NCBI GenBank assembly: GCA_903895695.1 | Contig: CAITUY010000042.1 | Coordinates: 879 to 64,878, forward strand | Length of the DNA: 64,000 bases | Direction of reading: 5' to 3' | Source of the DNA: an uncultured bacterium | GTDB lineage: Bacteria > Verrucomicrobiota > Kiritimatiellia > CAIKKV01 > CAITUY01 | Shown here: piece by piece, positions 20,661 to 35,410 of the stretch | Position numbering within the stretch: the first letter of the stretch is position 1 | Layout: the number at the start of each line of letters is the position of its first letter | Made by a program: the position numbers and the translations under genes | Notes under the pieces: generated by a model | Database searches by the model: none | Seen by the model: the letters and a program-made list of their open reading frames with translations, nothing else | Told to the model about the DNA's origin: nothing

Positions 20661-20795
20661 CTAAAACGTCAGGCGCGTGAAGAGCAGGACGCCCACGATG
20701 GCCAGCATCATGGCCACGATGGTCCAGCGGCCGATCTCGCGCACCACGGCGCCGGTGGTGAAGAAGATCGCCAGCATGAGCAGGATCATCTTCAT
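20661..20795 (-). CDS. Candidate 44-aa hydrophobic micro-protein (two predicted TM helices), absent from the supplied ORF track.
   Basis: Reverse-strand translation by eye: MKMILLMLAIFFTTGAVVREIGRWTIVAMMLAIVGVLLFTRLTF*. ATG lies 4 nt after the wzc stop, in a 147-bp gap between wzy and wzc. Confidence 0.3.
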   Translation of the reverse strand: MKMILLMLAIFFTTGAVVREIGRWTIVAMMLAIVGVLLFTRLTF

Positions 20796-20799
20796 GCGA

Positions 20800-23130
20800 T
20801 CACACCCAGCGATAGAGCCACTCGGGAATCCAGTACTCGGTGTAGTTCACAACCACCCCGACGAGCTTCTCCCGCGGCAGTCTCCGGGCGGCGGCTTCGA
20901 TCACTTTCGCCTTGGTGGCGTACAACTGGCTCACTAGCAGCACCCCGTCGGTCTGCGGCGCGATCAGCAGGCCGTCCGAATGCGACGTAAGGTCGGGGAC
21001 CTCGATCAACACGACGGCGAAACGGTCGCGCGCCTGGTCGAGCAGGCGGCTGAAGGCGGCGGAGTTGAACAGCACCTCGCCATACTCGATCGTCTTGCCG
21101 GCTGGCAGCAGCGAAAGGTTCGGATTCGCGGTCGCCACGATCGCGCCGTCCAGCGCCACGCGACCGTCGAGCACATCCCCCAGCCCCGGCACGCCGCCGG
21201 CCTGGAACAAGGCCGACAAACCCGGGCTCTGCAGGCTGGCATCCACCAACAGCACCGGTTGCCGCAGATCGCTGGCCAGCACCACCCCGAGGTTAGCTGT
21301 CAGCAGCGTCTTGCCCTCCCGAGGCTTCGCGCTGGCGACCATCAGAACCAGCGGCGCGGGGGGCTCATAGGCGGCGCGGACGGCGATGCCGATATGACGG
21401 ACGCGCTCCATGAAGTCATCCAGGGCCTCCTCCTGCGGATCATCCGACGCGCCCGCCCGCTGCACCCGTGCGGCGCTCACGAGGAAGCCGGGCGACACGG
21501 TCCAAGGTAGATCGAAACGGCGGGCGCGGAAGGCCACTCCCAGCCCCGCCTTGAGCCGCGCGGTCGCCTTCCGGGTCCAAGTCCAGCGCGGCCGGCTGGT
21601 CGCCGCCACCAACCGATCCAAGGGCTTCTGCAGCCAGGCCGGCAGGATCAGCGGTGCCTTCCCCCGGTACAGCTTGGGCAGGGCGCCAATCAGCGGCACT
21701 CCCAGCCGCCGGCTCAGGTCGCCCGGCCGGCACAGCCTCGGATCCCCGAACTCCAGCACAAAGACAATCAGGAACCCGAGGCAGAACCCGCCGCCCACGC
21801 CGGCCGCGAGAAAATTCTTGCGGATCGGCTTGTACCGCGACAGCGCGACGAGGGGCGGATCGATGATGGTAAAACGGTTGGTCTGCTGCTCGAACTCGAC
21901 TTCGCGGGAAACGCGAGCCTGCTCCAGCTTCATGCGCAGGTTGTCATAGATCTCCCGCGTCAGCTTGACCTCGCCCTCCATCCGCGCCTGGTCCCGTTCC
22001 AGTTGCGGGACGGCCAGGAGTTTCTGCCGTGTCTCGCCCGCCATGCGGTTGAATTCCTCGACCTTCTGTTCCAGGACCTTGATCTTGATGCGCGCGTCTT
22101 CCCGGCGGGCCGTAACCTCCTGGAAGACCGGCGAGCGTACTTCCTGGGTCTCGGACGCCTGGTTCTTCTCCTTCTCGTGTTCCAGCAGGTCCTTGATGTA
22201 TTCCATCTCGCGCTGGAGCTTGAGCACTTCGGGGTGCGATTTGTCCCGCGTGGCCAGCAGGTTACCCATCCGCAACGACAACTCCTGGTACTGGCGCTGA
22301 TACGGCGTGTTCTGGACGAAAAGGGCCTGCGAGACCACCATCGGCTTCTCGCCGGCCAGCCGTTCGGTCAGCAGCTTTTCGTTCAGGTGCTCCTGCTTGA
22401 GTTCCAGATCGGCGTCCAGCGCCTTGGCGGTGTAGTCGTGCAACTGGCCTCCGAGGCCCAGGAGTTGCTGCAACGTCTCGGCGTTCGCCTGGCGGAAATC
22501 CTGAAGCGCCCCCTCCATGCGCTCAAGTTCCTCGCGATAATGATCGAGTTCCTTCTGGATGAAGTCCACCGCGGCCATCGCCTCGCGCCGGCTGCCGTGC
22601 AGGCTCTTCTCAATGAACAAACGGCTGATGGCATCCACCAGGTCCCGGGCCATCACCGGATCCGCCGCCGAACAGCCGATCTGAAACGAGTCCGCCGCCA
22701 GGCCGATCAGATGAATGTTCGCGCGAATCTGGTTGACCAGTGCCTCAAGTTCCGCGTCGTTCCTGAGCTTCTTGTCCAATCCCAGCTTGCGAATGGTGTC
22801 CTCGATCAGCGGCCGGCTGTAGATAATCTTCTGGAACGAGCCCAGCCGGTTGTAATCGGTCATCGCCACGGCCGTTTCATACCGGACCAGCGGGTTGAGA
22901 ATGTCCTCCTTGCCCAGCAGGATCGTGGTCGAAGACATATAGCTGGGTTTGACGATGAGGCTGGCCAGCAGGCTCAGAATCGGCGTCAGGATCAGCACGA
23001 CCAGAAAAAGTCGCTTCCGGCGGAACACGGTTTCCAGGAGGTAACGCAGACTGAAATCGCCTGCGACGCGCGTCTCCGGCGTCGTGGGCTGGGTCCGTCT
23101 GGGCACCTTGCTGCTCATCCGCGGGATCAA
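20800..23130 (-). CDS. wzc: Wzc-like polysaccharide co-polymerase with C-terminal BY-kinase (tyrosine autokinase) domain.
   Basis: N-terminal TM plus Wzz-like region, a long coiled-coil periplasmic segment and a second TM (FLAAGVGGGFCLGFLIVFVL). Then Walker A VASAKPREGKTLL, Walker A' VLLVDASLQSP and a C-terminal Tyr cluster (NYTEYWIPEWLYRWV). Start is TTG 23130 or ATG 23118. Confidence 0.8.
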   Translation of the reverse strand: MIPRMSSKVPRRTQPTTPETRVAGDFSLRYLLETVFRRKRLFLVVLILTPILSLLASLIVKPSYMSSTTILLGKEDILNPLVRYETAVAMTDYNRLGSFQKIIYSRPLIEDTIRKLGLDKKLRNDAELEALVNQIRANIHLIGLAADSFQIGCSAADPVMARDLVDAISRLFIEKSLHGSRREAMAAVDFIQKELDHYREELERMEGALQDFRQANAETLQQLLGLGGQLHDYTAKALDADLELKQEHLNEKLLTERLAGEKPMVVSQALFVQNTPYQRQYQELSLRMGNLLATRDKSHPEVLKLQREMEYIKDLLEHEKEKNQASETQEVRSPVFQEVTARREDARIKIKVLEQKVEEFNRMAGETRQKLLAVPQLERDQARMEGEVKLTREIYDNLRMKLEQARVSREVEFEQQTNRFTIIDPPLVALSRYKPIRKNFLAAGVGGGFCLGFLIVFVLEFGDPRLCRPGDLSRRLGVPLIGALPKLYRGKAPLILPAWLQKPLDRLVAATSRPRWTWTRKATARLKAGLGVAFRARRFDLPWTVSPGFLVSAARVQRAGASDDPQEEALDDFMERVRHIGIAVRAAYEPPAPLVLMVASAKPREGKTLLTANLGVVLASDLRQPVLLVDASLQSPGLSALFQAGGVPGLGDVLDGRVALDGAIVATANPNLSLLPAGKTIEYGEVLFNSAAFSRLLDQARDRFAVVLIEVPDLTSHSDGLLIAPQTDGVLLVSQLYATKAKVIEAAARRLPREKLVGVVVNYTEYWIPEWLYRWV

Positions 23131-24125
23131 TTCTTCTTGTTGAGGGTCTGCAGGGTCGCGCCGAGCAACACCGTGTTGATCGACGGCGTCAACTGGCCGA
23201 GGTAGTAGTTGAACGTCGCCACGCCCTTGCGCGGCACGTAAACGATGTCGCCGGACTCAATCGCCGGGTTGTCCGTGACTTTGCCGCCCAGCATGCCCTG
23301 CATGTTCACGGTCAGGACCGTGGCCTTCCCGGACTTGTCGCGTCGGACCACGCGCACCTTGCTCAATTGCGCATCATGCGTTTCGCCGCCCGCGAGCGCT
23401 ACTGCCCGGACCACGTCCACGTCCTGGCCCCGGGCGAACACGCCGGGCCGAGCCACTTCACCGAGCACGTAGAAGGTGTGTTCCTCGTCGGCCTTGACGT
23501 AGACGGCATCCTCCGGCAACAGGGGGATGTTCAACGTACGATCGCCTTTGCGCAGCAGGTCATAGAGATTGATCTCGATCACCGTGCCGCGCCCGCGCAC
23601 CACCGTGCAACCGCGCATATCCGCCTTGTCCGTCAGTCCTTCCGCCCGCGCCAGGGCACTGAGCAGCAACGGCCGGCCCGGGAAGTTGTACTGACCCGGC
23701 TTGCGCACCTCGCCGAGCACGAAAATGCGGTTGTTGTTGTACTCCTGAACGATGATGTTGACCGTCGGGTTCAGGTAGGCGGGCTTCAGCAAGGCCTCGA
23801 TCTTCGCCTCCGCCTGCTCCCGGGTCAAGCCGTCCAGGCTCACCACCCCCACGCCCGGCACCGTGATCTTGCCGTCGGGGCCGATGACGTAATTGCGGTT
23901 CAGTTCCGCCACGTCCATGGCATAAAGTTGCACCACGTCGCCGGCGCCCAGCAGGTAGTCGCCGGCACCGATCTCCAGCGTCTTGAGCTGTTCAGCCGTC
24001 AGCCCCATGGAGGGCTGGTTTGTCGCCTCCGAGGGCGCCCCGCCGGCCTCGGGAGCGGCCCGCGGCGGGACGGTCACGCAGGCGGACAGGCCGAGAAGCA
24101 GTAAGATAGAGGCCGCTTTGTTCAT
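23127..24125 (-). CDS. wza: Wza-like outer-membrane polysaccharide export lipoprotein (OPX family).
   Basis: Lipobox LLLLGLSAC. Poly_export/SLBB-type segments (DYLLGAGDVVQL..., PGQYNFPG). 332 aa. Confidence 0.8.
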   Translation of the reverse strand: MNKAASILLLLGLSACVTVPPRAAPEAGGAPSEATNQPSMGLTAEQLKTLEIGAGDYLLGAGDVVQLYAMDVAELNRNYVIGPDGKITVPGVGVVSLDGLTREQAEAKIEALLKPAYLNPTVNIIVQEYNNNRIFVLGEVRKPGQYNFPGRPLLLSALARAEGLTDKADMRGCTVVRGRGTVIEINLYDLLRKGDRTLNIPLLPEDAVYVKADEEHTFYVLGEVARPGVFARGQDVDVVRAVALAGGETHDAQLSKVRVVRRDKSGKATVLTVNMQGMLGGKVTDNPAIESGDIVYVPRKGVATFNYYLGQLTPSINTVLLGATLQTLNKKN

Positions 24126-25756
24126 GACTTTTGCGGAAATCTCAGGTGATAGATGCTGCGAGGCGCCAGGGCCCGTCGCACGCCATCTCTTTGCACCGGA
24201 ACCGGTTCCTTCGTCGCTTCAATGCCGTCCCCCTGTTCGCCGACACGGTATTCATTCCCCGGAAGCAGGTCAATGCCTTTGAACTCGACCCTGAGGGTTT
24301 GCGTCAACGCCGACTTGTTGACGACGATGAGGGTGACGACCTTCCGCTCCTCGTCGCGAGCGGCATACACAGACAGGCGCTCATGGCCCTCGGCCGGGGT
24401 CGTCCAAGCGACATCGAGGCGCGCGTTGCCGAAGGCGGCCTCGTGGCCGTCCGCGTTCCGATACAAAGCGTAGGCTGCCGCCGTCGGCGACCCTTCCTGC
24501 GGATAGGTCCAGTAGCAGGCCAGATCGAGCCCTTCGCGGCCGAAGATGCCCAGGATGTCGGCCAGCGCCAGCGCGCCGCTGATATCCTCCTCACCGCCCC
24601 AGTTGTACTCAGTGATGCCGGTCTTCAAGCCCGGATAGTACCGCCCCACCCAGCGCTGCAACCGCGGGATCAACGTGATTCGGTCGTTGATCCACGAAGG
24701 ATCCCGGTAGGCCGGATCGAAAAGCGAGCGTGTTGTCTCGACCCGCAGGGCCGTCGCCTTCACATCGACGGACGCGGAGTGCACGCCTTCGGCTTGCGGA
24801 TAGAAGTGAACCGTCACGACGTCCAGCAGCCGTTCGCCCGTACGATCCTCGTGCGCCTTCAGTTGTTTGAGGAACCAGGGCAGGAAGTCCTCTCCGCCGT
24901 GACTGGCCCGATCGCGGTTGCTCCCGGTCTCGCGGTCCAGGGCGGACTGGGCATAGGCCGGCCAGCCCCATAGATCCGGGCCGGTAATGGGAGCGCCCGG
25001 CGCGGCCTGACGGACCGCGTGTGCCATGGCGACGAATTTCTCCAGATACTCGTCGTAGGACACCGGGTTGGGATGCACGTCGCGATGCGTGACGTTCCAC
25101 AGCATGGGCTCGTTGCCCAGCGCGAACAGCACCCGGTGCTCTTCGAATAGCTTCGGGAACTCCTGCTCCATTTGGCGGATCCACTCGGCCACAAAGGACG
25201 GGTCGGCCACCACGGAGGTATCGGAACGATCATTCCCAGTCACGGGCTTCCCATCCGGCCGTAATCCGTTGCCGGCATCCGGACGGCCCGGGTCGGTCTT
25301 CTCCTGCGGCCCGTATTTGCGCACGGAAAACGATGTCGAATGCGTGTCTTTAGCCACAAATCCCACCAGCGGCAGCGTCACCAGTGCCCGTCCACCGGAC
25401 TGTTCGGCCCGCCGCAGGAAGCCCTGCCAGGCGTTATGCTCGACGGCCACGTTTTCGAAGAACCAGTCGTTACCGGTGTTCCACGCGTCGCCCAGCTTCC
25501 AGTTGTACCGGCAGGCCGTATTGCCCCCCCAGCGGTTCAGCGGTACGCAGGCATTGGTTAGCAATCGCAGCGGCGCCGCGGCCATGCCGTATATGTCAGG
25601 CGAAATCTGCTGGGGCTTCGCCGGGAGACTGATCCGGCACGTCGGCATCGGTGCAAGCAAGTCCGCGGCGTCCACGCGCCCGGCCGAGGCCGCCATGAGC
25701 CCGGCGATGCTGGCGGCGCCAAGTGCTCCGGCTATCCGCCATCGCTGTCGCGTCAT
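24122..25756 (-). CDS. Secreted glycoside-hydrolase-like protein (TIM-barrel GH; family not assignable by eye).
   Basis: Signal peptide [26 protein letters not shown]. Conserved block [28 protein letters not shown]. Start trimmed to ATG 25756 (ATGA overlap with the upstream gene); the track's 81-aa [10 protein letters not shown] extension is rejected. Confidence 0.6.
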
Positions 25757-26307
25757 GTGGCTTCCAGGGCTCGCAGCATACGGGCGGGCACGCCCGCGGC
25801 GAGCACGTTGGGCGGGATATCGCGCGTCACGACGGCCCCGGCGCCGACCACGGCCCCTTCCCCGATACTCACGCCCGGCAGCACCGTGACCCGCGCGCCC
25901 AGCCACGCGCCGCAGCCGACGCGAACCGGCTTGCACTCCGACTGGCCCGCACGGAACGTGGGCCGGCCGATCGCATGGGTGACCGTGAGAAACAGGCATT
26001 CCATCCCGACCGAAACGCCATCCTCCAGCACAATGTCACCGCCCAGGTTGAAGGCCACGCCTTCATTGAGGTAACAGTTCTGTCCAATGCTGAGGCACTT
26101 GGCTGGAGAGCCGTTTCCCGTGAGATGCAACGACCCGGAAAGAACCGTGCCGCGGCCGATCCGCAAGCCACCGAGCCGGTACAGACGCGGGCGCAACCGC
26201 AACCCGGTTCCCGACGGGATCAGCGCCCCCAGAAGCCGAACCAGCCTCCACCGCGGGTGCAGACCTTCGATTTCGCTTACGAACAGGGATTTCACAGAAC
26301 CATTCAT
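25753..26307 (-). CDS. Hexapeptide-repeat acyltransferase.
   Basis: [52 protein letters not shown] LbH motif. First gene of the minus-strand array, facing a divergent promoter gap at 26308-26429. Confidence 0.7.
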
Positions 26308-26429
26308 GGCGGAAATACCCTTGCACAACGCCAGGGCTGAATCAAGCCTTGCAGCGGGCAGAATTGGAACTTCTCAGGCGTCAGGACGTGGCCTATAGTG
26401 GCCGAAACCGCGTGACTTGGGGGACATTC

Positions 26430-27932
26430 ATGGGCGAAGGGCAGACACCGCAACCATCGACCGTCGTTGTACTGGGAATCCCCTTCCACAACGTCAGCTT
26501 CGAAGAAACGGTGGCTTGGGCGCGCGACCGGATTCGATCGCGGAAGCCCGGTTACATTGCCACGGCGAACATCGACTTCGTCATGCAGGCCCGGCGCGAC
26601 CCGGAACTGCAACGCATTCTTCTCGAAGCCGACCTGGTAGTGGCCGATGGCATTCCCATTGTGTGGCTCTCGGGCTGGCTCGGCCCGCGCCTCAAGGCCC
26701 GCGTGACAGGCAGCGACCTGGTCCCCCTGTTTGCCGAGATGGCCCGCGACAATGGGTTCTCGCTCTTCAACCTCGGCGGAGCGCCGGGCGTGGCAGAGAA
26801 GGCGGCTGAAGTCCTGGTGCAACGCTTCCCCGGCCTGCGGATCGCCGGCTGCTACTCGCCGCCCAAGGCGGACGTACTGAACATGAACCACGCCGAAATC
26901 CTGGCGAGGCTTGAGGCAGCCCAGCCCGACCTGCTGCTCGTGGCCTTCGGCGCGCCCAAGCAGGAGAAATGGGTCAACTTCAATCTCGGGCGCTTGAAGG
27001 TTCCGGTCTCCATCGGCATCGGCGGCTCGCTAGATTTTCTGGCGGGCGCCCAGACACGGGCGCCGAAGCTCGTGCAGCGGCTGGCCCTGGAGTGGCTCTG
27101 GCGCATGCTGAGCGACCCCCCCCGCCTTTTCCGCCGCTACGTGGGGAACATCGGGTTCCTGTTTTCGGCCGTCATGAAACTGCTGGCCGCCCGACTCGGC
27201 GCGGATCGGGCTGAAGAGCCGCTGGCCGGCTCGGCGGCCGCCGCGGAACTGGGCCGGCTCGCACTCGTCGAGGCCTACGTGCGCATCCGCGACGCCGTCG
27301 AAGCGGAGGCGTTTCAGGCCCGCCTCGCCGCCCTGCCGGACAGCCGTCCCATTGTATTGGACCTGGCCGGGGTGCCCTGGTTGTCGAGCCTCGAGCTGGG
27401 CGTGCTCCTGCGCCTCACCACGTTCTGCCGCGGTCGCAACCAGGGCCTGCTCCTGACCGGCATCGGCACGCGTGTACGGCGCCTGCTGGCCCTGTACCGC
27501 CTGACGGAGTACCTGGAGCTTACGGACGCGGCCGGGGCGATTGCCGCAGCAACCAAGGCCTGTGACGCGTCCGCCCGCGAAGGCCGGATCGACCGCGCCG
27601 AACAGGGCCGGCTGACGGCGAGCTTGCCGACCGAGCTGATGGCGGCCAACCTGGACGGGTTCAAGCGACTCTGGGAGGCAAACCCCGACCTGCCGTCGGC
27701 TCGCGAATGGATTCTTGACGCGTCGCTGACGCGCTTTGTGGACAGTGCGGCGCTGGGTTTCTTCGTTGGCCTGAAGAAACGCGCGACCGATGCGGGCATT
27801 GCGCTCCGTTTTACGGGTGTCCAGGCGCGCGTCCGCCAGACGTGCCGTATCGCCAGGGTGGAGTCCGTGTTGCTGGAGCCAGAAATCCCGCCCGCGGACG
27901 CTACGACGTCGCGCCCGCCAGCACCTCGCTAA
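26430..27932 (+). CDS. Fusion protein: GT26 (WecG/TagA/CpsF-type) glycosyltransferase domain plus two tandem STAS (anti-sigma-factor-antagonist) domains.
   Basis: N-terminal 250 aa: VVVLGIPFHNVSFEET...YIATANIDFVMQA...ADGIPIVWLS...KQEKWV...GIGGSLDFLAG is the GT26 signature pattern. C-terminus: IVLDLAGVPWLSSLELGVLLRL...GLLLTGIGTRVRRLLALYRL and ILDASLTRFVDSAALGFFVGLKKRATDAGIALRFTGVQARVRQTCRIARV are two SpoIIAA-like STAS units, each with the DSS/DSA phospho-serine position. GGGGGA RBS before ATG 26430. Confidence 0.75.
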   Translation: MGEGQTPQPSTVVVLGIPFHNVSFEETVAWARDRIRSRKPGYIATANIDFVMQARRDPELQRILLEADLVVADGIPIVWLSGWLGPRLKARVTGSDLVPLFAEMARDNGFSLFNLGGAPGVAEKAAEVLVQRFPGLRIAGCYSPPKADVLNMNHAEILARLEAAQPDLLLVAFGAPKQEKWVNFNLGRLKVPVSIGIGGSLDFLAGAQTRAPKLVQRLALEWLWRMLSDPPRLFRRYVGNIGFLFSAVMKLLAARLGADRAEEPLAGSAAAAELGRLALVEAYVRIRDAVEAEAFQARLAALPDSRPIVLDLAGVPWLSSLELGVLLRLTTFCRGRNQGLLLTGIGTRVRRLLALYRLTEYLELTDAAGAIAAATKACDASAREGRIDRAEQGRLTASLPTELMAANLDGFKRLWEANPDLPSAREWILDASLTRFVDSAALGFFVGLKKRATDAGIALRFTGVQARVRQTCRIARVESVLLEPEIPPADATTSRPPAPR

Positions 27933-28278
27933 GCGTGGCGAGCAGTTCCTCACGACGGATCGGTTTGAGCAAGGCCTTGGCCGCGCCCAGGTGCATCGCC
28001 GCTTTCAATATCCCCACGTTACTGTGAGTACCGCCGCCCGACATGGCCACAATTTTCGCATTCACGTCGAGGAGCCGGAGATCGCGAATCGTTTCGAGCC
28101 CGTCCTTGACGGGCATGAACAGATCCAACAGAACAACGTCGGCCGGCTGAGCCGCGTACTGCTTCAGCCCCTGGACGCCATCCTCCGCCTCGCAAACCTC
28201 GTAGCCCGCCGGCTCCAACTGCCGCCGTATGACCACCCGGATATCCGCCCTGTCTTCGATGATCAGTACTTTAGGCAT
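27901..28278 (-). CDS. Single-domain response regulator (CheY-like REC).
   Basis: KVLIIEDRADIRVVIRRQLEPAGYEV...DVVLLDLFMPVKDGLETIRDLR has the acidic pocket and phospho-acceptor Asp. Start is ATG 28278 or 28287. Confidence 0.8.
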   Translation of the reverse strand: MPKVLIIEDRADIRVVIRRQLEPAGYEVCEAEDGVQGLKQYAAQPADVVLLDLFMPVKDGLETIRDLRLLDVNAKIVAMSGGGTHSNVGILKAAMHLGAAKALLKPIRREELLATLSEVLAGATS

Positions 28279-29707
28279 GGTTTGCATCCTCTCCGAGCAA
28301 TGACAGCGCCCGCCCCACGAACGTTCCCCAAAGAATCCTCAGGTCCTCGTGCCAGCTACGGCGGAAGGCATAGTAGCGGGCCTCCACGGCGGCCACAGCC
28401 GGTTCGCTCTCGCCGTTCCGGGGCGTGGCATAACTGAAGACGGCGGCGAAATACGCGGGTAAGCTCTCGCGCAGCGCGTTATCCTCCGGGGCCCGCAGCG
28501 GCTCGTGACCGCACAGCCAGAGACGTCCTGCGGCGGCACTGGCCAGGCGCGGCAGCAGGTCCAACCCCAGGGCGCGAAACAGTCGCACTGACGGACACAT
28601 ACGCCCGCCCGCCGACGGCCGAAACGTACTCAGCATCCTCACCTTCCGGCCCGTTCCATGGAAGGCGCGCCGCTCGAAACGCGCCAGCCTCCGCGTTCGC
28701 AGCCAGCCATACAACAGGATGAAGGGCACGATCTGCACGGCAAGCAGGAGCAGCGCCAGCAACCAGCCCGCCACGCCGCTCCACACATCGCGAAGACGGA
28801 ACGGCCGCTTCACGTTGGCCAGCAGCAACGAGTCCTCCAAGTCCACGACCATGCCATCCTGCGGATCGATAAGCCGGCGCCCGGCCGCAATCTTGTCCCG
28901 CAGTTCGACGCCCCGCCCCACGTACGTACCGTCCAGAACCACACAACGCTTGAGATCGGCCTGACGATCGATGACCGTGTGATTTCCGATCACGGCCGCC
29001 GGCCCCACCGATGCAAGCACGCCGATGCGGCACTCGTTGCCGATGACGACCGGCGGCGTCACGCGGGCCGAAGGAGGAATGATGACGTTGTAGCCCACCC
29101 AGGACCCGTCCGTGGCGCCGTAACCCGGGGTCACGTACCGGCCCGCCTCGCCCTGGGCCAGTTGCATATTCAAGTCGAAGAACGCCCTGACCGAGTCGAC
29201 GGTCGCCATGTCGATGCCAAGGTCCCGGAAGGACCGCGGCTCGGCCGTCGGGCGTGTGCCGGCCAAATACGCGTCCAGGAAAACCGGGTCCTGGCTCAAC
29301 AGGCAGGCCGCCCCGCCGGGCAACCCGCACCCATAAGTCCGATCGGCCGCCGGCGCGTCGGGCTTCCGTTCGAAACGCCGCCGTGGGAACATGGGGCCAG
29401 TCAAGAAGAGCAATCCGTCCCGCCACTCCGCGGGATTGCGCTGCAGAAAAGTCGCGGGCAGTCGATCGTCCCGCAAGAAGCTGTAGGTAATGCGCAGCCC
29501 CCACCGGCGGCCGTCCTCGGCATAGGCTTCCACCCGGTCCGAGCCGTCGCCCAGCACCAGCCGCACCTCCGCCACGCCGAGATCCAGGCACCATTCCATC
29601 CAGTAGTCGAGCAGCGGCCGGTTGGCCACCGGCGCCAATGGCCAGGGAATGCCGCCCAGCGAGCGAGTCCAGCCCGGATTCTCCCCCGTGTAGATGACCG
29701 CTTTCAT
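28271..29707 (-). CDS. Membrane-anchored sugar-nucleotidyltransferase-like plus LbH-domain protein of unknown function.
   Basis: N-terminus MKAVIYTGENPGWTRSLGGIPWPLAPVANRPLLDY resembles an NTP-transferase fold with a degenerate G-x-G-T-R loop. A central LbH region (VIGNECRIGVLASVGPAAVIGNHTVID) is followed by a TM helix (GVAGWLLALLLLAVQIVPFILLYGWL) and a 130-aa C-terminal domain. Start trimmed to ATG 29707 (ATGA overlap). Confidence 0.6.
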   Translation of the reverse strand: MKAVIYTGENPGWTRSLGGIPWPLAPVANRPLLDYWMEWCLDLGVAEVRLVLGDGSDRVEAYAEDGRRWGLRITYSFLRDDRLPATFLQRNPAEWRDGLLFLTGPMFPRRRFERKPDAPAADRTYGCGLPGGAACLLSQDPVFLDAYLAGTRPTAEPRSFRDLGIDMATVDSVRAFFDLNMQLAQGEAGRYVTPGYGATDGSWVGYNVIIPPSARVTPPVVIGNECRIGVLASVGPAAVIGNHTVIDRQADLKRCVVLDGTYVGRGVELRDKIAAGRRLIDPQDGMVVDLEDSLLLANVKRPFRLRDVWSGVAGWLLALLLLAVQIVPFILLYGWLRTRRLARFERRAFHGTGRKVRMLSTFRPSAGGRMCPSVRLFRALGLDLLPRLASAAAGRLWLCGHEPLRAPEDNALRESLPAYFAAVFSYATPRNGESEPAVAAVEARYYAFRRSWHEDLRILWGTFVGRALSLLGEDANHA

Positions 29708-30045
29708 CCGCAGGCTTTGACGGCTTCCTCCACGGTGTCGAGGATGTCGAAGACCTTGTACGCCCGCGTGATCTCGAACACCATGCGGGCCTTCTTCTGC
29801 AAACGCGCGATCTTCAGGTCGCCGCCGCGTTCCGAGACGCGCTTCAGCAGGGCGATCAGCGTGCCCAGTCCAGCGCTGTCGAGGAATTCGACGCCGCCCA
29901 GATCCACCACCACGTTGCGCAGTTCCGGCGCGCCCTGCCACCAGCTCCCGAACTGGTCGCGAAAGGAGTCCACCCCGGCGGCCGTCAGCGGCCCGTTCAC
30001 CGTCACAACCCCCACGCCCTGCATCACCCCGAACGTCGTTTCCAT
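29704..30045 (-). CDS. STAS-domain anti-sigma-factor antagonist (SpoIIAA/RsbV/HsbA-like).
   Basis: VVDLGGVEFLDSAGLGTLIALLKRVSERGGDLKIARLQKKARMVFEITRAYKVFDIL is the canonical STAS pattern with the phosphorylatable Ser in DSAGLG. GGAG RBS 6 nt upstream of ATG 30045. Confidence 0.8.
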   Translation of the reverse strand: METTFGVMQGVGVVTVNGPLTAAGVDSFRDQFGSWWQGAPELRNVVVDLGGVEFLDSAGLGTLIALLKRVSERGGDLKIARLQKKARMVFEITRAYKVFDILDTVEEAVKACG

Positions 30046-30071: not shown

Positions 30072-30806
30072 TCAGTAGGCCCCGCGCCCCAACAACACGG
30101 CCGGCACCGTCTTCAGAATGATCACAATATCCTTCCAGATGCTCTGACTGTGGATGTACTCCAGATCCAGCCGCACCTGCTGGGCAAACGGAATCTCGGA
30201 GCGTCCCTGAATCTGCCACAGGCAGGTCAGCCCGGACTTCACGTGCAGCCGCTTGCGGTCGGCCAGCGTGTACTGCGCGACCTCCCGCGGCACGGGCGGC
30301 CGCGGCCCCACCACGGCCAGGTCGCCGACGAGTACATTCAGCACCTGCGGCGCCTCGTCAATACTGTACCGGCGGATGAAGCGGCCGACGCGCGTCACGC
30401 GCGGGTCGTTCTTCATCTTGAAGATTACGCCACCGGTAGACTCGTTCTGCGCCAGCAGGGCGTCCTTGCGCTTTTCGGCATCGCGATACATGGAACGGAA
30501 TTTATAGAAACGGAAGAGGCGGCCATTGAGGCCGACGCGATCCTGGGCGAAGAACACGGGCCAGCCGTCCTCCAGCACGATCGCCAGCGCGACGCCCAGA
30601 AACAGCGGCGAAAAGAGGATCAAGGCGGTGAGCGACACCGCGACATCCATGAAGCGCTTGAGGACAAAAAGACTGGTCAGACCCGCTTCCCAGATCCGCA
30701 ACCGGATCCTCTGCCTGACCTGCAATACGCGCATGCCGGTACGCGAAGCCGGCAGGTTCAGCGAATCGAAGAGTTCCCGTCGTGCTTGGTAGATGGCTTC
30801 GTTCAT
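30072..30806 (-). CDS. Initiating sugar-phosphate transferase (polyprenyl-phosphate hexose-1-phosphate transferase, bacterial sugar transferase family; WbaP/WcaJ C-terminal-domain or PglC-like).
   Basis: LKRFMDVAVSLTALILFSPLF...KFRSMYRDAE...DPRVTRVGRFIRRYSIDEAPQVLNVLVGDLAVVGPRP are the diagnostic motifs. 244 aa. Confidence 0.9.
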   Translation of the reverse strand: MNEAIYQARRELFDSLNLPASRTGMRVLQVRQRIRLRIWEAGLTSLFVLKRFMDVAVSLTALILFSPLFLGVALAIVLEDGWPVFFAQDRVGLNGRLFRFYKFRSMYRDAEKRKDALLAQNESTGGVIFKMKNDPRVTRVGRFIRRYSIDEAPQVLNVLVGDLAVVGPRPPVPREVAQYTLADRKRLHVKSGLTCLWQIQGRSEIPFAQQVRLDLEYIHSQSIWKDIVIILKTVPAVLLGRGAY

Positions 30807-32470
30807 CAGGGTCTCCCCGACCGTTCAGCCAGCACCCTACCAAAGTCCCGATCCACGGCAAAGAACGCAATGTTCTCGCTTTCGCGCCGGTAGAACTCGG
30901 CGTGGACGGAAACCGACTGGATGATACCCAGGCCACGCCCGTGTTCGCGGTCCTCAGGCTGGCGGCGGGTCGCGGCCAGTTGGCTCGCGAAATCCCAGGC
31001 GCGGCCCTGATCACGGAATAGCACCCGGCACACGGAACCGGTCAGCCGCACCTGGAACCCGATGGCGGCCCCGGCGGGCGGCCGGCCGTGAGTGACGATG
31101 TTGGTGCCGTGCTCCATGACTGCCAGTTGCACGGCCCCGGCCGACTCCTCGGACCAACCTCGCGCCTGCAGCAGGCGGTCCGCCTGCGCCGCGACATCGG
31201 CCATGGCCGCCAACTCGGGCGCCAGGGAAGTTTCCAGCAACACCGAAGCGGGATCGATCCGTTGCACGGCCAGCGCGCTGCAGTCGTCCTCGCCCAGCTC
31301 GAAACCCTCCTGGCGTAGCACTGCCAGCACGCTGGCCGCCGGGTCGATCGTGCGCGGGTCCCCGACGATGCGGCGCACCAGTTCGCCCAGCCGTGCCACC
31401 CCGCAGGGCTCGCCGCTTGTGCGGTGCCGGGCTTCCAGGAGGCCGTCCGTGACCAGGAACAGGGTCGACCCCTGTTCCGCCTCTGCCCCAGTCTGCTGTC
31501 CGGCCTCGTACGGCGGCGTTTCAAGAAACGAAAACCCGATCGGCACGTCGCCGCCGCCGCTCAACCGCCCGGACACGTCCGTGCCGTCGGCTCGCACCAG
31601 GAGCGGCTCGGGATGTCCACAGTTCATACAGATCCACTGCCAGCGAGTCGTGTCCAGGATCGCCAGGAACAGGGTGGCGTATAGCTCCGGGTTCTCGACG
31701 TGGTACCGGAACCGGGAGTGTATCTCGCGGCACACGGCGGCGGGCCCCAGCGCGGCGAAACCACGGGCGGCCTCCGTAATGACGGCTTTGAGGAGAGATG
31801 AAACGATGGCCGGCGCCACGCCATGGCCGGCCACATCCCCCGCGTAAACGCACAGCCGGCCATCCGGCAGCGGCAGGGCATCGAACACGTCGCCGCCAAT
31901 AGTCAGGCTGGGCTGATAGGTCATGGTGACCTCGTAGCCGTTGCCGAACAGGGGGTACGTGGAGAAGAGCTTGCGCTGCAGCGAACCGGCCACCTCCAGT
32001 TCACGCGACATCTTTTGCTGCCACAACCGCAATTCGTCCGTGCTGCGTTTCAAGGCCAGGGCGTTGCGCACGCGGGCCAGCAGTTCCCGGGCATAGTACG
32101 GCTTACGGATGTAGTCGAAGGCGCCCAGGACCAGCCCGCGCTCCACCTCTTCGATCTCCTTGCGGGCCGTCACGAGGATCACGCTGATGTCCCGCGTGCG
32201 AGGATCCTGCTTGAGGCGCTCCAACACTTCGTGACCGGTAAGCCCGGGCATCATGACATCCACCAGGGCCAGATCCGGAAGATGCTGCTGCGCGAGTTGC
32301 AGGGCGCTGGTGCCATCCGCCGCCTCGAGCACCTCGCAGCCGCGCTGGGTCAGTAGCTTGCGAAGCACGGCCCGATTGGGCAGATCGTCGTCGGCAATCA
32401 GCACCCGGCCGTGAAGGGCCTCCAAGGTCCGGAGCGGTTCAGCGACGGGCGCGGGGGGACGGTCAGCCAT
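30806..32470 (-). CDS. Three-domain partner-switching regulator: REC receiver, PP2C/SpoIIE-type Ser phosphatase, and GHKL anti-sigma-factor-type Ser kinase (HsbR-like architecture).
   Basis: REC: RVLIADDDLPNRAVLRKLL...LALVDVMMPGLTGHEVL. PP2C: TIGGDVFDALPLPDGRLCVYAGDVAGHGVAPAIVSSL...FLVTDGLLE. HATPase: AVMEHGTNIVTHGRPPAGAAIGFQVRLTGSVCRVLFRDQGRAWD (N-box-like E..TN..H). Confidence 0.8.
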   Translation of the reverse strand: MADRPPAPVAEPLRTLEALHGRVLIADDDLPNRAVLRKLLTQRGCEVLEAADGTSALQLAQQHLPDLALVDVMMPGLTGHEVLERLKQDPRTRDISVILVTARKEIEEVERGLVLGAFDYIRKPYYARELLARVRNALALKRSTDELRLWQQKMSRELEVAGSLQRKLFSTYPLFGNGYEVTMTYQPSLTIGGDVFDALPLPDGRLCVYAGDVAGHGVAPAIVSSLLKAVITEAARGFAALGPAAVCREIHSRFRYHVENPELYATLFLAILDTTRWQWICMNCGHPEPLLVRADGTDVSGRLSGGGDVPIGFSFLETPPYEAGQQTGAEAEQGSTLFLVTDGLLEARHRTSGEPCGVARLGELVRRIVGDPRTIDPAASVLAVLRQEGFELGEDDCSALAVQRIDPASVLLETSLAPELAAMADVAAQADRLLQARGWSEESAGAVQLAVMEHGTNIVTHGRPPAGAAIGFQVRLTGSVCRVLFRDQGRAWDFASQLAATRRQPEDREHGRGLGIIQSVSVHAEFYRRESENIAFFAVDRDFGRVLAERSGRP

Positions 32471-32876
32471 GAGGATGTCCTCCGGCCGGGTTCAAGGTGT
32501 CGACCCAGCGGCTCAGTTGCTCCGCAAATGCCGCACAGCGAGTCCACTCCTCGGTGCGCGCCGCGTGGCTGAGTTCCCGGCCGACAACCGAGATCTCGGG
32601 AAATCCGAGGGTACCACCCATGCCTTCCAGCGAATGCCCCTTGTCCCGGATGGCTTGCGCATCGCGCCGCGCGCACGCCGCGGTCAGTGTGTCCGCGGTC
32701 GTCCGCATCTTCTCTGCGAACAGTCCGAGAATCTCGGAATCGATCACGTCCGTATCCACCTGATACTCGGCCGCCTGGATGACGATGTCGGGCACGAGCG
32801 AGAGGAACAACTCTCGCGCCGCCGCCGCGGCCACCCGCGTGGCGCTGCCTCCGCCGACGTGTTCAGGCTGGGTCAC
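32463..32876 (-). CDS. Histidine phosphotransfer (Hpt) protein (HptB-like).
   Basis: AIRDKGHSLEGMGGTLGFPEI carries the Hpt phospho-His in the H-x-L-K/E-G motif within an approx. 110-aa helical domain. Start is probably a GTG just downstream of the glgP stop; the longer track ORF would overlap glgP. Stop overlaps the HsbR-like start by 8 nt. Confidence 0.65.
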   Translation of the reverse strand: MTQPEHVGGGSATRVAAAAARELFLSLVPDIVIQAAEYQVDTDVIDSEILGLFAEKMRTTADTLTAACARRDAQAIRDKGHSLEGMGGTLGFPEISVVGRELSHAARTEEWTRCAAFAEQLSRWVDTLNPAGGHPHG

Positions 32877-32878
32877 GG

Positions 32879-35410
32879 TCAGGAGCCTTTCCGCCGACGC
32901 TTGGGTACGTCGGCCGGCGCCATTCGAATCGGCACGGGTTGCAGGCCCCAGATCTCGCCTGCGTACTCCCGGATCGTACGATCGCTGGAAAAATGGCCCG
33001 TCCGGGCCACGTTGAGAACCGCCTTGCGCGCCCACTCCCCGGGCCGGCCAAACAGGTCCGCCGCCCGGGCCTGCGTCTCGACGTAATCCCGGTAATCCGC
33101 CAAATGAAAATAGCGATCACCCCACTCCGTCAGCGCGCGATACACGTCCTCGAACAGGCCGGGGCTCGACCTGCAAAACGTATTGGCCTGCAGCATCCCG
33201 ACGACGGCCCACAGTTCGGGGTCCCGGGCCAGCCAGGCCCACGGATCGTAGCCGCCGGCACGCAGGGCTTCCAGTTCCTCGGCCTTGTGGCCGAAGATGA
33301 AAATGTTGTCGGCCCCCACCGCCTCGGCAATCTCAATGGTGGCGCCATCCCAGGTGCCGATGGTCAACGCGCCGTTCAAGGCCAGCTTCATGTTTCCCGT
33401 CCCCGACGCTTCGGTGCCGGCCGCGGAAATCTGCTCGGAAAGGTCGGCCGCCGGCACGATCTGCTCGGCCAGGGAGACGCAGTAGTCGGGCAGAAACACG
33501 ACCTTCAGGCGGTCGCCGACCTGGGGGTCGTTGTTGATGGTCGCGGCCAGCTCGTTGATCAGCTTGATGATGCGCTTGGCCATGTGATAACCCGGGGCCG
33601 CCTTGGCGCCGAAGAGACAGACGCGCGGCGTCGAGCTGAACCCGGGTTGTTCCTTAATGCGTCGGTACAGCGTCATGATGTGCAGCGCATTCAACAACTG
33701 CCGCTTGTACTCGTGCAGCCGCTTGATCTGCACATCGAACAGCGCCGCCGGATCCACCTGCACGCCGGTCCGCTCGCGGATCACTTGCGCCAACGCCTGC
33801 TTCTGACTGCGCTTGACGGCGAGAAAGGCTTCGCAGAATGCCGGGTCGTCTGCCTGGGGCTCCAATTCCTGCAGGTGCTCGGGTTCGCGCAACCAGCGGT
33901 CGCCGATGGCCCCGGTCACCAGCGCCGCGAGGCCGGGATTGCATTGCAGCAGCCAGCGCCGCTGGGTCACGCCGTTGGTCTTGTTGTTGAATCGTTCCGG
34001 CCACAAAGAGGCGAAGTCCGGCACCAGCCGGGTCTTCACCAGCTCGGTATGAAGGCGCGCAACGCCGTTGACGGAATGGCTGCCCACGATGCCCAGGTGC
34101 GCCATGCGGACCTGCTTGACATCACCTTCCTCGATCACCGACATGCGGCGCAGCCGGTCCGTGTCGCCTGGATAGACTTCGGCGACCTGGGTGAGAAAGC
34201 GGCGGTTGATCTCGTAAATGATCTGCAAATGTCGCGGCAGCACCCGTTCCATGAGCGGCACCGGCCATTTCTCCAGTGCCTCGGGCAGCAGCGTGTGGTT
34301 GGTGTACCCCAGCGTACGCACCGTCTGCTCCCAGGCTGGCTCCCACGGCATGTCGTGCTCGTCCACGAACAGGCGCATCAGTTCCGCCACGGCCAGCACC
34401 GGGTGCGTATCGTTCATCTGGATGGCGTTGCGTTCGGCAAAACGCTCCGTCGTGCGGTGATTCTTGAGATGACGGCGCAGGAGGTCACGCAGCGAGCAGG
34501 CCACCAGGAAATATTCCTGCAGCAGCCGCAACTCGCGGCCCGCGCTCGTGTTGTCCGAGGGATACAGGACTTTGCTGATGTTCTCGGCCCAGTTCTTCTC
34601 CTCCACGGCCCGCACGTAATCGCCCTGGTTGAACACATCCAGGCGGAAGCCCTGGGTCGCGCGCGAACTCCAGAGTCGAAGAAAGTTGACCGTGTTCACG
34701 CCGTAGCCGAGCACCGGCAGATCGTAAGGAATGCCCTCGAACATCTGCCAATCGAGCCAGACCGGGCGCGCGGGGCCGCCATGGGCGCCGGCCACGTTCT
34801 CGATCCGGCCGTACGCCAGCACCGGGACGGCATACTCGGGACGCACCATTTCCCACGGGCAGCCGTACTTCAGCCAGTCATCCGGCGACTCCTGCTGCCA
34901 GCCATTGGCGAACTCCTGGCGGAACATACCGTGCTCGTAGCGGATCCCGTAGCCGTAGCCGGGGTACTCCTGTGTCGCCAGGGAATCGAGGAAGCAGGCG
35001 GCCAGCCGCCCCAGGCCGCCGTTGCCCAGGCCGGCGTCGGGCTCGAGCGCCGCCAGCCGCGCCGGGGCGAGGTCGAGCAGCTGCAGCGCCTCGACGACGG
35101 CCGGCCCCAAATTCAGGGCCAGGGCGTTCGAGGTCAGCAACCGGCCGATGAGGAATTCCAGCGACAGGTAATACATCCGCTTTACATCCCGCGCCAGATA
35201 CTCGTTCTGGGTGGCAATCATGCGGTCCACGACCAGGTCATTGAGGGCCTTGGAAAGCCCGACCAGTTTGTCGTAATCCGTGGCGACCGCCCAGTCCTTG
35301 CAGCGTGAGTAGCGCACGTGGTGGCGAATGCTTTCGGCTAATTGTTCGGCCGTCATCGGCGGACGTGTGGTCATGTCTTTGGCTCCTTCATCCCGGATAA
35401 ATACATTCAA
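32879..35410 (-). CDS. glgP: Glycogen/alpha-glucan phosphorylase.
   Basis: EPDAGLGNGGLGRLAACFLDSLAT and the PLP-lysine region ISAAGTEASGTGNMKLALNGALTIGTWDGA are diagnostic. 843 aa. The track start is TTG; an internal ATG (MTTRPPMTAEQL) is an alternative. Confidence 0.9.
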   Translation of the reverse strand: MNVFIRDEGAKDMTTRPPMTAEQLAESIRHHVRYSRCKDWAVATDYDKLVGLSKALNDLVVDRMIATQNEYLARDVKRMYYLSLEFLIGRLLTSNALALNLGPAVVEALQLLDLAPARLAALEPDAGLGNGGLGRLAACFLDSLATQEYPGYGYGIRYEHGMFRQEFANGWQQESPDDWLKYGCPWEMVRPEYAVPVLAYGRIENVAGAHGGPARPVWLDWQMFEGIPYDLPVLGYGVNTVNFLRLWSSRATQGFRLDVFNQGDYVRAVEEKNWAENISKVLYPSDNTSAGRELRLLQEYFLVACSLRDLLRRHLKNHRTTERFAERNAIQMNDTHPVLAVAELMRLFVDEHDMPWEPAWEQTVRTLGYTNHTLLPEALEKWPVPLMERVLPRHLQIIYEINRRFLTQVAEVYPGDTDRLRRMSVIEEGDVKQVRMAHLGIVGSHSVNGVARLHTELVKTRLVPDFASLWPERFNNKTNGVTQRRWLLQCNPGLAALVTGAIGDRWLREPEHLQELEPQADDPAFCEAFLAVKRSQKQALAQVIRERTGVQVDPAALFDVQIKRLHEYKRQLLNALHIMTLYRRIKEQPGFSSTPRVCLFGAKAAPGYHMAKRIIKLINELAATINNDPQVGDRLKVVFLPDYCVSLAEQIVPAADLSEQISAAGTEASGTGNMKLALNGALTIGTWDGATIEIAEAVGADNIFIFGHKAEELEALRAGGYDPWAWLARDPELWAVVGMLQANTFCRSSPGLFEDVYRALTEWGDRYFHLADYRDYVETQARAADLFGRPGEWARKAVLNVARTGHFSSDRTIREYAGEIWGLQPVPIRMAPADVPKRRRKGS

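Follow-up and report, generated by a model that had tools for sequence, protein, structure and literature searches.

The window analyzed here, a 64,000-nucleotide stretch of DNA from an uncultured Kiritimatiellia bacterium, encodes a protein in which a complete GT26 glycosyltransferase is fused to two tandem STAS domains. This architecture was proposed in an earlier sequence-only reading and is borne out by a continuous open reading frame, Pfam and PDB profile matches, and structure models. The fusion is real and widespread. Its gene is laid out as follows.

26430..27932, + strand: GT26-STAS1-STAS2 fusion coding sequence, 500 aa (open reading frame list, Pfam, identical database protein)
26457..27197, + strand: GT26 (GT-E fold) catalytic domain including the C-terminal appendage helices, aa 10 to 256
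27198..27233, + strand: variable linker from the appendage helix to STAS1, aa 257 to 268
27234..27569, + strand: STAS1, degenerate, aa 269 to 380 (Pfam, PDB profile, isolated model)
27582..27875, + strand: STAS2, canonical anti-sigma-antagonist type, aa 385 to 482 (Pfam, PDB profile)

The open reading frame runs continuously over 26349..27932 (+ strand) from a TTG codon. This TTG was dropped as the start in favor of ATG 26430, which yields 500 aa and is backed by an identical 500-aa database protein (P0001), an RBS-like GGGGA 5 to 9 nt upstream, and a promoter-like TTCTCA-17-TATAGT at 26371 to 26399. The fusion gene is the sole plus-strand gene of its stretch, with a divergent promoter region of its own. 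An artefactual origin of the fusion (by frameshift, by a stop codon that was missed, or by chimeric assembly of a GT26 gene with separate STAS genes) was weighed solely because the assembly comes from an uncultured organism, found no support, and has a negligible chance of being true: the frame is unbroken, the identical 500-aa protein is present on two other contigs, 115 full-length homologues from independent assemblies in several phyla share its length and architecture, and most tandem-STAS modules checked elsewhere are GT26-linked as well.

The full-length homologues carry the same GT26-STAS-STAS layout at 46 to 82% identity. The tandem-STAS module, searched alone, returned 276 representative clusters; eight of the ten checked are GT26-linked, and the other two are short and contain STAS only. 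At about 205 aa, these two matches may be fragments. Matches of 270 to 390 aa, considered as stand-alone tandem-STAS proteins, proved to be N-terminally truncated GT26 genes with a WecG match from position 85, 118, 126, or 146, and a 762-aa match, considered as the module on another enzyme, is a double-GT26 version. A scan of genome contigs found two loci only, in an unclassified MAG and a Lentisphaerae MAG. Among the hosts, Desulfonatronum was identified from cluster look-ups and Kiritimatiellia from source names in the homologue table; Desulfonatronum parangueonense (GCA_054656975.1) is an example of a carrier with a complete genome.

The GT26 domain of the fusion is complete and conserves the TagA catalytic residues. 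Pfam places Glyco_tran_WecG at aa 67 to 237 (E = 2.7e-57), the PF03808 match reaches 193.7 bits against a cutoff of 27.4, TIGR00696 reaches 122.7 bits against 69, and the protein has the GT-E fold of the GT26 family. There was no NCBIfam match at equivalog level, with EpsA at 154 bits against a cutoff of 500 and TarA at 126 against 350. In TagA, Thr37 and Asp65 are catalytic and Arg214, Arg221, and Arg224 belong to the appendage (PMC6493773). Alignment identifies T45, N47, and D73 of the fusion as the equivalents of TagA T37, N39, and D65, and R225, R232, and R236, in the appendage, as those of R214, R221, and R224; T45, D73, and all three arginines are invariant across the 115 homologues. The C-terminal helices of TagA and WecG are needed for catalysis and membrane binding (PMC6493773; PMC9804384). 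In TagA, these appendage helices contribute R221 to complete the active site and also attach to the membrane, and the protein passes between inactive oligomers and active membrane-bound monomers (PMC6493773). The linker that follows the appendage in the fusion consists of gapped, poorly conserved columns and is without regular secondary structure in the model.

Both units of the C-terminal half score and model as STAS, as the earlier reading had predicted. Scanned alone, aa ~253 to 380 gave 38.1 bits for STAS_2 and 30.7 bits for STAS, and aa ~375 to 500 gave 38.3 and 32.2 bits; all four scores exceed the gathering cutoffs of 29.2 (STAS_2, PF13466) and 22.6 (STAS, PF01740). Family profiles run against the PDB matched TM1442 and SpoIIAA, with E-values of 1.7e-10 and 1.6e-8 for STAS1 and 4.6e-13 and 3.3e-10 for STAS2, and hhalign relates the two domains to each other with 95.7% probability. 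The full-length model has a pTM of 0.90, which indicates that the three domains are predicted to adopt a defined, compact arrangement. In this model, STAS2 shows beta-alpha topology with STAS fold matches. An isolated model of STAS1 has fold matches almost exclusively to STAS structures, the nearest over the whole domain being the SulP-type STAS domains 3oir and 3mgl (TMq 0.68 to 0.71).

The profile alignments place "WLsSlELG" of STAS1 and "FiDSaalG" of STAS2 on the "YMDSAGLG"/"FMDSSGLG" of anti-sigma antagonists. On the basis of these alignments to TM1442 and SpoIIAA, S320 and S439 occupy the phospho-Ser column, and the window protein does keep a Ser in both units, as had been claimed. S320 (codon 27387 to 27389, within W-L-S319-S320-L-E-L-G at the start of helix alpha2) is Ser in 88 of the 115 homologues and Ile in 24; STAS1 and STAS2 are therefore not equivalent. 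STAS1 also has Glu at the Gly position of canonical STAS domains, its first beta strand is replaced by an N-terminal helix, and it matches the motif of the phosphorylatable subclass only in part (S-S320-L-E-L-G). STAS2 carries F436-V-D438-S439-A-A-L-G443 (S439 codon, 27744 to 27746) and a second motif, L399-P-x-E-L-[T/M]-A-A-N407. According to the model and the profile alignment, S439 starts helix alpha2, as in SpoIIAA, and STAS2 has the motif of the phosphorylatable SpoIIAA/RsbV/HsbA/SypA domains, with Ser at the N terminus of helix alpha2 in a D-S-x-G-L-G-like sequence. Both motifs are kept despite a mean pairwise identity of 38% for the domain: in F-x-D-S-[AS]-[AG]-L-G, S439 is retained in 113, D438 in 114, and G443 in 111 of the 115 homologues, and L-P-x-E-L-T-A-A-N is nearly invariant, with Met at T404 in the window protein.

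The genes around the fusion belong to an exopolysaccharide locus and a signaling module, all on the minus strand.

10862..26328, - strand: rest of the Wzx/Wzy-type exopolysaccharide locus, with three GT4 genes and three hexapeptide acyltransferases (checked genes, Pfam)
17636-19159, - strand: Wzx
19189-20652, - strand: Wzy-like
20800-23130, - strand: PCP/Wzz
23127-24125, - strand: OPX/Wza
24122-25999, - strand: GH44
27901..28287, - strand: REC single-domain response regulator (Pfam Response_reg, 6.1e-23)
28271..29707, - strand: 478-aa protein with a nucleotidyltransferase-like N terminus, LbH, a TM segment, and a weakly Bac_transf-like C terminus
29704..30045, - strand: stand-alone STAS, 113 aa, HsbA/SypA-like, with F-L-D-S-A-G-L-G (Pfam STAS, 1.4e-19; TIGR00377, 66.8 bits)
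30072..30806, - strand: small Bac_transf phosphoglycosyl transferase, the pathway priming enzyme (Pfam PF02397, 2.4e-64)
30806..32470, - strand: REC-PP2C(SpoIIE)-HATPase_c_2 bifunctional Ser phosphatase/kinase of HsbR architecture (Pfam)
32463..33035, - strand: Hpt phosphotransfer protein, HptB-like (Pfam Hpt, 5.2e-9)
35497..38520, - strand: hybrid histidine kinase, HisKA-HATPase_c-REC-REC

A partner-switching set is thus co-encoded with the fusion, comprising an HATPase_c_2 Ser kinase and a PP2C/SpoIIE phosphatase in the 30806-32470 protein, whose PDB sequence matches are 3eq2 (a REC-PP2C chain) and 3ke6 (Rv1364c), and the stand-alone STAS. The earlier description of the kinase/phosphatase gene as neighboring was too generous; it lies ~2.9 kb off, with four genes between. 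By domain architecture alone, the Hpt, REC-PP2C-kinase, and STAS proteins with the hybrid kinase form a module of the HptB-HsbR-HsbA type. The hybrid kinase is likely the input to the Hpt relay, and its homologues adjoin the fusion gene in four related loci (L001, L006, L002, and L004). Judging from the L006 orthologue, which has 128 aa, translation of the Hpt gene probably begins downstream of the GTG listed. Pfam scans of 49 window ORFs, all but a few small ones, revealed no domain of a sigma or anti-sigma factor, although such a factor may be encoded elsewhere in the genome.

The gene nearest to the fusion, encoding the single-domain REC protein, is convergent with it and shares 32 nt with its 3' end; tblastn and the L006 gene list show that it is absent from the syntenic relatives. 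The 478-aa protein has orthologues of 44 to 45% identity in L001 and L006. It may be a degenerate phosphoglycosyl transferase, an idea whose sole support is a sub-threshold Pfam Bac_transf match at its C terminus (E = 0.033); pairwise BLAST of this C terminus against the priming transferase of the locus gave no match.

The whole signaling module is syntenic in L001 and L006, relatives at 77% identity that hold orthologues of both the 30806-32470 protein and the stand-alone STAS. A further orthologue of the stand-alone STAS occurs in the Lentisphaerae locus (L002), where its gene adjoins the fusion gene and no kinase is present in the stretch examined. In five of eight related loci (L003, L004, L005, L007, and L008), no Ser kinase or PP2C was found within 10 kb. 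The partner-switching linkage is confined to the close clade of the window. STAS2 aligns with the stand-alone STAS at 30% identity over 94 aa (E = 1e-10), both motifs included, consistent with one shared kinase/phosphatase; no similarity to that protein was found for STAS1.

Our best reading of the observed domains, conserved catalytic and phospho-site residues, broad conservation, and gene neighborhood, which we hold to be somewhat on the probable side, is phospho-control of a committed lipid-linked step through S439. Judged by its sequence, the GT26 domain is predicted to be catalytically competent, and its most likely role is to attach the second sugar to the undecaprenyl-PP-sugar delivered by the Bac_transf priming enzyme, a transfer that would constitute the first committed step of Wzx/Wzy exopolysaccharide synthesis. 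The tandem STAS domains would form a built-in regulatory switch at the C terminus of the enzyme. An RsbW/SpoIIAB-type Ser kinase would add a phosphate to S439 in STAS2, and a PP2C phosphatase would remove it again. Both activities would reside in the REC-PP2C-kinase protein, with their balance set by a phosphorelay from hybrid kinase to Hpt to REC, as in HptB/HsbR/HsbA and RscS/SypE/SypA. STAS1 would serve mainly as a degenerate adaptor between STAS2 and the enzyme. Because the STAS module directly follows the helices that complete the active site in TagA, we propose that folding of the appendage and its engagement with the membrane, and hence activity, probably depend on the phosphorylation state. 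If All4160 and SypA are a guide, the enzyme would be active when unphosphorylated.

The idea that the nearby Ser kinase/phosphatase has the fusion enzyme as its substrate or partner, first suggested from the sequence, is plausible by motif and by analogy. It is supported by the canonical STAS2 motif with its nearly invariant S439, the similarity of STAS2 to the stand-alone STAS, the synteny of the module in the 77% relatives, and the precedent of All4160 of Anabaena, in which the STAS Ser is phosphorylated by Alr3423 and which acts genetically downstream of the REC-SpoIIE phosphatase HenR, with S74A bypassing it (PMC13555669). It is qualified by the five loci lacking a kinase or phosphatase within 10 kb and by the loss of the STAS1 Ser in 24 homologues. 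The missing linkage weakens the phospho-model but does not refute it, since the genes for the All4160 kinase and phosphatase are also unlinked to All4160 (PMC13555669) and SypA orthologues occur without SypE (PMC4517449). The Glu in the STAS1 motif and the Met at the otherwise near-invariant T404 of the window protein also speak against this model.

The same loci would fit a phosphorylation-independent role, in which the tandem STAS module acts as a scaffold for docking to the priming enzyme, flippase, or PCP, controls oligomerization, or provides a binding site for a small ligand. The STAS domains of MlaB and SulP/SLC26 work in such ways independently of a kinase. STAS1 is degenerate at its Ser and is nearest to SulP-type structures, STAS2 has a weak NCBIfam MlaB match, and the toggle of TagA between oligomer and monomer is a point at which an oligomerization module could act. 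We nevertheless consider such a role rather unlikely, given that D-S-x-x-L-G is complete in STAS2 of ~98% of the 115 diverged homologues, that STAS2 best matches TM1442 and SpoIIAA and not MlaB (E ~0.1) or SulP STAS domains, and that it resembles the HsbA-like stand-alone STAS nearby. A true partner switch, which we regard as quite improbable, would make the fusion the output partner, besides or instead of a substrate: its STAS module would form a stoichiometric complex with the kinase domain or the stand-alone STAS, and the phospho-state of the stand-alone STAS would sequester or release the enzyme. SypA and HsbA do act through partner binding (PMC4517449; PMC5085249), kinase-facing motifs are common to the stand-alone STAS and STAS2, which could therefore compete for one kinase domain, and their genes adjoin in the Lentisphaerae locus too. 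Most loci, however, have no stand-alone STAS within 10 kb, and direct phosphorylation explains the invariant STAS2 Ser more simply.

Phospho-control through S439 can also be extended into a broader proposal, which is possible and offered tentatively: a widespread non-cyanobacterial switch in which phosphorylation of STAS2 would determine whether the GT-E appendage folds at the membrane, and thereby control the committed Wzx/Wzy step, with STAS1 as an intramolecular partner. In this proposal, the stand-alone STAS would compete with the enzyme for the bifunctional kinase/phosphatase and perhaps also regulate the priming transferase in trans. Exopolysaccharide output is usually ascribed to transcription, c-di-GMP, or tyrosine-kinase co-polymerases; the architecture described here suggests that the cell may start and stop slime production at the level of this enzyme. 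For Ser phosphorylation acting directly on a biosynthetic glycosyltransferase via a fused STAS, there is one experimental example, from 2026, in cyanobacterial priming enzymes. The GT26 fusion would represent the same design, arisen independently on the enzyme class of the next step in PVC-group and Desulfobacterota lineages and in several hundred metagenomic clusters; STAS switches carried by enzymes would then be a general strategy. Since the module comes directly after the TagA-type appendage needed to complete the active site, a specific structural mechanism that is open to testing suggests itself. If true, this Rosetta-stone fusion would point to early lipid-linked glycosyltransferases as the long-sought targets of orphan STAS proteins in exopolysaccharide loci such as SypA, for which no mechanism had yet been established in papers of 2015 and 2021, and the fusion would be a candidate target class for orphan STAS regulators in polysaccharide loci.

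STAS-Bac_transf fusions (All4160, All2285, and XssP) have been noted since 2007 (PMC13555669; PMC8256260), and the initial impression that no glycosyltransferase-STAS fusion had been described was overstated: a 2026 study showed that Ser phosphorylation switches All4160, and its authors see the STAS-enzyme strategy as largely lineage-specific (PMC13555669). Our literature search found no published description of GT26 with tandem STAS domains. Literature on tandem or two STAS domains was limited to SLC26 dimers and the stressosome, and that on partner-switching STAS phosphorylation of an exopolysaccharide glycosyltransferase to the Anabaena study. New here are the other enzyme family, the C-terminal tandem STAS arrangement, and the non-cyanobacterial hosts.

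Among known systems, TagA/TarA and WecG share with the fusion the catalytic domain, the catalytic Thr and Asp, the appendage Arg residues, and the C-terminal helices. They stop after the appendage (~245 aa), whereas the fusion has ~245 further residues of STAS-STAS, and they serve teichoic acid and ECA synthesis rather than a Wzx/Wzy exopolysaccharide pathway. All4160, All2285, and XssP likewise join a lipid-carrier enzyme at the start of a pathway covalently to an anti-sigma-antagonist-type STAS with a conserved Ser, and in All4160 the REC-SpoIIE phosphatase HenR and a kinase of the RsbW type set its activity, the output being enzyme activity and not a sigma factor. The enzyme of All4160 is a priming phosphoglycosyl transferase (Bac_transf), in contrast to the Leloir-type, second-step GT26; its STAS is single and N-terminal, in contrast to a C-terminal tandem with one degenerate copy; and its hosts are cyanobacteria, in contrast to PVC and Desulfobacterota lineages. 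With PF03808 rather than PF02397 and STAS domains that are C-terminal and duplicated, the fusion falls outside the All4160/XssP type, yet we propose that it shares the same working principle.

SypE/SypA controls the Syp polysaccharide (PMC4517449), and HptB/HsbR/HsbA follows the same switching logic (PMC5085249). Like these two systems, the genes near the fusion comprise a hybrid histidine kinase, an Hpt protein, a REC-bearing Ser kinase/PP2C phosphatase, and a small STAS protein, and the module lies within a polysaccharide locus, as is the case for syp; unlike either system, the fusion locus has an extra, enzyme-borne STAS pair. The REC-PP2C-kinase order of the 30806-32470 protein is that of HsbR and not that of SypE, which is kinase-REC-PP2C. 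Finally, Rv1364c of M. tuberculosis, a single-chain PP2C-kinase-STAS protein, also has partner-switching parts fused into a larger polypeptide, but there the regulators are fused to each other and the target is a sigma factor, whereas the fusion described here joins STAS to the regulated enzyme.

The fusion gene (26430-27932, + strand) encodes a GT26 member. Pfam places Glyco_tran_WecG at residues 67-237 (E 2.7e-57), NCBIfam assigns the protein to the wecG_tagA_cpsF superfamily (122.7 bits), and residues 1-237 align with Thermoanaerobacter TagA (7mpk, 3.5e-33). From this alignment and the TagA papers (PMC6493773), TagA T37, N39, and D65 correspond to T45, N47, and D73, and the alignment likewise matches the TagA appendage residues R214, R221, and R224 to R225, R232, and R236; these residues are invariant across 115 homologues. 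D65 is the catalytic base of TagA, whose C-terminal appendage is needed for catalysis and membrane binding (PMC6493773). In the fusion protein, a long appendage helix (residues 230-256) leads directly into the STAS pair.

Pfam detects two STAS stretches C-terminal to Glyco_tran_WecG, each C-terminal half scanned separately passes the gathering cut-offs for the two STAS models, and NCBIfam finds ant_ant_sig in two stretches. Profiles were built from 28 diverse homologues each for STAS1 (A2, residues 262-382) and STAS2 (A3, residues 381-486). The first matches TM1442 (1.7e-10) and SpoIIAA (1.6e-8), the second matches both more strongly (4.6e-13 and 3.3e-10), and S320 in STAS1 and S439 in STAS2 align with the phosphorylated Ser of these proteins. 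The two domains are homologous to one another (hhalign 95.7%). STAS1 modelled in isolation reaches a pLDDT of 87.4 and retrieves almost exclusively STAS structures, and in both models the Ser lies at the start of helix alpha2. The protein thus holds two bona fide STAS domains: the sequence-only reading, which had proposed a GT26 domain with two Ser-bearing STAS units, is borne out, and the non-STAS C terminus that it named as the refuting outcome was not found in either half by Pfam, profile, or model.

A word-indexed protein search with the fusion protein returned 732 matches, and nearly all of the best 120 are 470 to 510 residues long, carry PF03808, PF01740, and PF13466, and are 46 to 82% identical. 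NCBI proteins in the family come from Desulfonatronum parangueonense and Kiritimatiellia MAGs, and a genome scan adds one unclassified and one Lentisphaerae MAG; database labels name only WecB/TagA/CpsF glycosyltransferases or TagA-type enzymes. Searched alone against 1.84 billion representatives, the tandem-STAS region gave 276 matches at E<=1e-3 (42 at E<=1e-10). Among ten of unusual length that were checked, seven are N-terminally truncated GT26 genes, one (P0197, 762 residues) is a tandem-GT26 version in which the two STAS domains come after a pair of WecG stretches, and two, of about 205 residues, show only STAS. Because these ten are mostly GT26-linked, this particular STAS pair seems to go with GT26. 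Pairwise identity averages 71% in the GT26 core, 58% in the C-terminal appendage, 31% in STAS1, and 38% in STAS2. The fusion thus represents a conserved family rather than a one-off, with a conserved enzyme and faster-evolving, putatively regulatory domains.

The two STAS domains are not equivalent. STAS2 carries F436-x-D438-S439-[AS]-[AG]-L-G443, with Ser in 113 of 115 homologues, and a nearly invariant L-P-x-E-L-T-A-A-N at the beta2-alpha1 turn; as in the SpoIIAA-SpoIIAB complex, the two motifs would form the kinase-binding face. In the STAS1 motif, W-L-[SND]-S320-L-E-L-G, Ile replaces Ser in 24 of the 115, and Glu occupies the position of Gly in canonical proteins. STAS2 is 30% identical over 94 residues (E=1e-10), both motifs included, to a stand-alone 113-residue STAS protein encoded nearby, whereas no pairwise similarity to it was found for STAS1. 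At codon 404 of the fusion protein (27639-27641), within the L-P-x-E-L-T-A-A-N motif of STAS2, Thr is present in 113 of 115 homologues but is replaced by Met in the window protein, the sole such substitution seen.

The fusion gene lies in a Wzx/Wzy-type exopolysaccharide (EPS) locus (about 10862-30806) with three GT4 genes, hexapeptide acyltransferases, Wzx, a Wzy-like polymerase, PCP/Wzz, OPX/Wza, a GH44 hydrolase, and a small Bac_transf priming enzyme. Features of the window include:

24122-25999 (-), GH44 glycoside hydrolase
27901-28287 (-), single-domain receiver
28271-29707 (-), 478-residue protein
29704-30045 (-), stand-alone STAS, signalling set, adjoining the EPS locus
30806-32470, REC-PP2C-HATPase_c_2 protein, signalling set
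32463-33035, Hpt protein, signalling set
32879-35410 (-), glycogen phosphorylase, between the Hpt and hybrid kinase genes
35497-38520, hybrid histidine kinase, signalling set
38571-43457 (-), 1628 residues with CARDB, MORN_2, and bacterial TSP3 repeats, probably a surface protein
49906-53766 (-), 1286 residues, no Pfam match
55579-63946 (-), alpha-L-fucosidase, FGGY sugar kinase, fucose-isomerase-like protein, and class II aldolase

The last run looks like fucose catabolism, in keeping with a PVC-type organism that degrades polysaccharides. The scanned ORFs of the window yielded no sigma or anti-sigma gene.

The entire arrangement is syntenic in L001 and L006, two relatives at 77% identity; in L006, no gene separates the Hpt gene from that of the hybrid kinase. 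The receiver gene, whose 3' end overlaps that of the convergent fusion gene by 32 nt, is absent from both and is therefore a recent insertion; its product could be a phosphate sink of the relay. The 478-residue protein, encoded between the fusion gene and the stand-alone STAS and conserved in both (44 to 45% identity), has a nucleotidyltransferase-like N terminus, an LbH/hexapeptide domain, a TM segment, and a sub-threshold C-terminal Bac_transf match (E=0.033). It carries 'LDLLPRL...GRLWLCGHEPL' at the place of 'LDELPQL...VGPRP' in active enzymes, and could be a priming-transferase paralogue that has lost its catalytic activity. The GH44 enzyme, kept in both, may trim the polymer of the pathway; the long, Arg/Gly-rich N-terminal extension of its listed ORF is probably untranslated, because the L006 orthologue has 545 residues.

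In more distant loci (L003 from Desulfonatronum, L004, L005, L007, and L008), the fusion gene is invariably part of an EPS locus, and no Ser kinase or phosphatase was found within 10 kb of it. In the Lentisphaerae locus L002, a convergent stand-alone STAS (12071-12385, - strand; motif ILDSSGIG) lies directly downstream of the fusion gene, and the sequence covered there encodes no Ser kinase. Immediately 5' of the fusion gene, L002 (5800-7850) and L004 (5934-8048, adjoining the exosortase genes EpsH and EpsI) each encode a hybrid kinase that shares 45% identity with the one in the window, and the REC-PP2C-kinase protein is absent from the sequence at both loci. The arrangement raises the possibility of a conserved link between hybrid kinase and enzyme.

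GT26 enzymes use lipid-PP-sugar from a priming transferase, and their C-terminal helices complete the active site and anchor the enzyme at the membrane (PMC6493773; PMC9804384). The most economical reading, which we consider somewhat probable, is that the STAS pair acts as a phospho-switch on the enzyme. An RsbW-type kinase would phosphorylate S439, a PP2C would remove the phosphate, and the resulting change would alter appendage and membrane engagement; here, the phosphorelay-controlled REC-PP2C-kinase protein is the obvious candidate for both activities, with the stand-alone STAS as a parallel or competing substrate. We infer phosphorylation, the direction of its effect, and the structural coupling alike. 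A docking or oligomerisation role independent of phosphorylation is a doubtful alternative, against which the near-invariant phospho-motif counts, and a stoichiometric partner switch with the enzyme as the sequestered partner seems unlikely.

An artefactual origin of the fusion is exceedingly improbable: the frameshift or assembly join considered earlier is contradicted by P0001, an identical 500-residue protein in public collections from other contigs, and by the conserved family. The gene occupies a single uninterrupted + strand ORF (26349..27932 in the window ORF list), in which the ATG at 26430 yields 500 residues and is likely the start, because of the identical protein, a GGGGA element 5 to 9 nt 5' of it, and a promoter-like TTCTCA-17-TATAGT at 26371-26399. 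It is the sole + strand gene within a long minus-strand run, divergent from a hexapeptide acyltransferase gene and convergent with the small receiver gene.

The claim that no GT-STAS fusion had been described proved too strong, because STAS-Bac_transf fusions in polysaccharide synthesis have been known since 2007, according to a citation in PMC8256260, and the mechanism was shown in 2026 (PMC13555669). All4160 of Anabaena, such a fusion, is phosphorylated on Ser74 by Alr3423 and needs the REC-SpoIIE phosphatase HenR, a need that S74A rescues (PMC13555669). The gene for All4160 is not linked to those for its kinase and phosphatase (PMC13555669), so the missing kinase linkage in distant relatives weighs less. 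Our literature search found no paper on the GT26 plus tandem STAS architecture. The window signalling set has the HptB/HsbR/HsbA architecture (PMC5085249) and, like SypE/SypA, sits within a polysaccharide locus (PMC4517449). The fusion protein differs from the All4160/XssP family in enzyme, domain order, and copy number and is not a member, although we propose the same working principle. The GT26-tandem-STAS family would be an independent version, in phyla other than cyanobacteria, of a STAS-enzyme design that the 2026 authors regarded as essentially cyanobacterial (PMC13555669).
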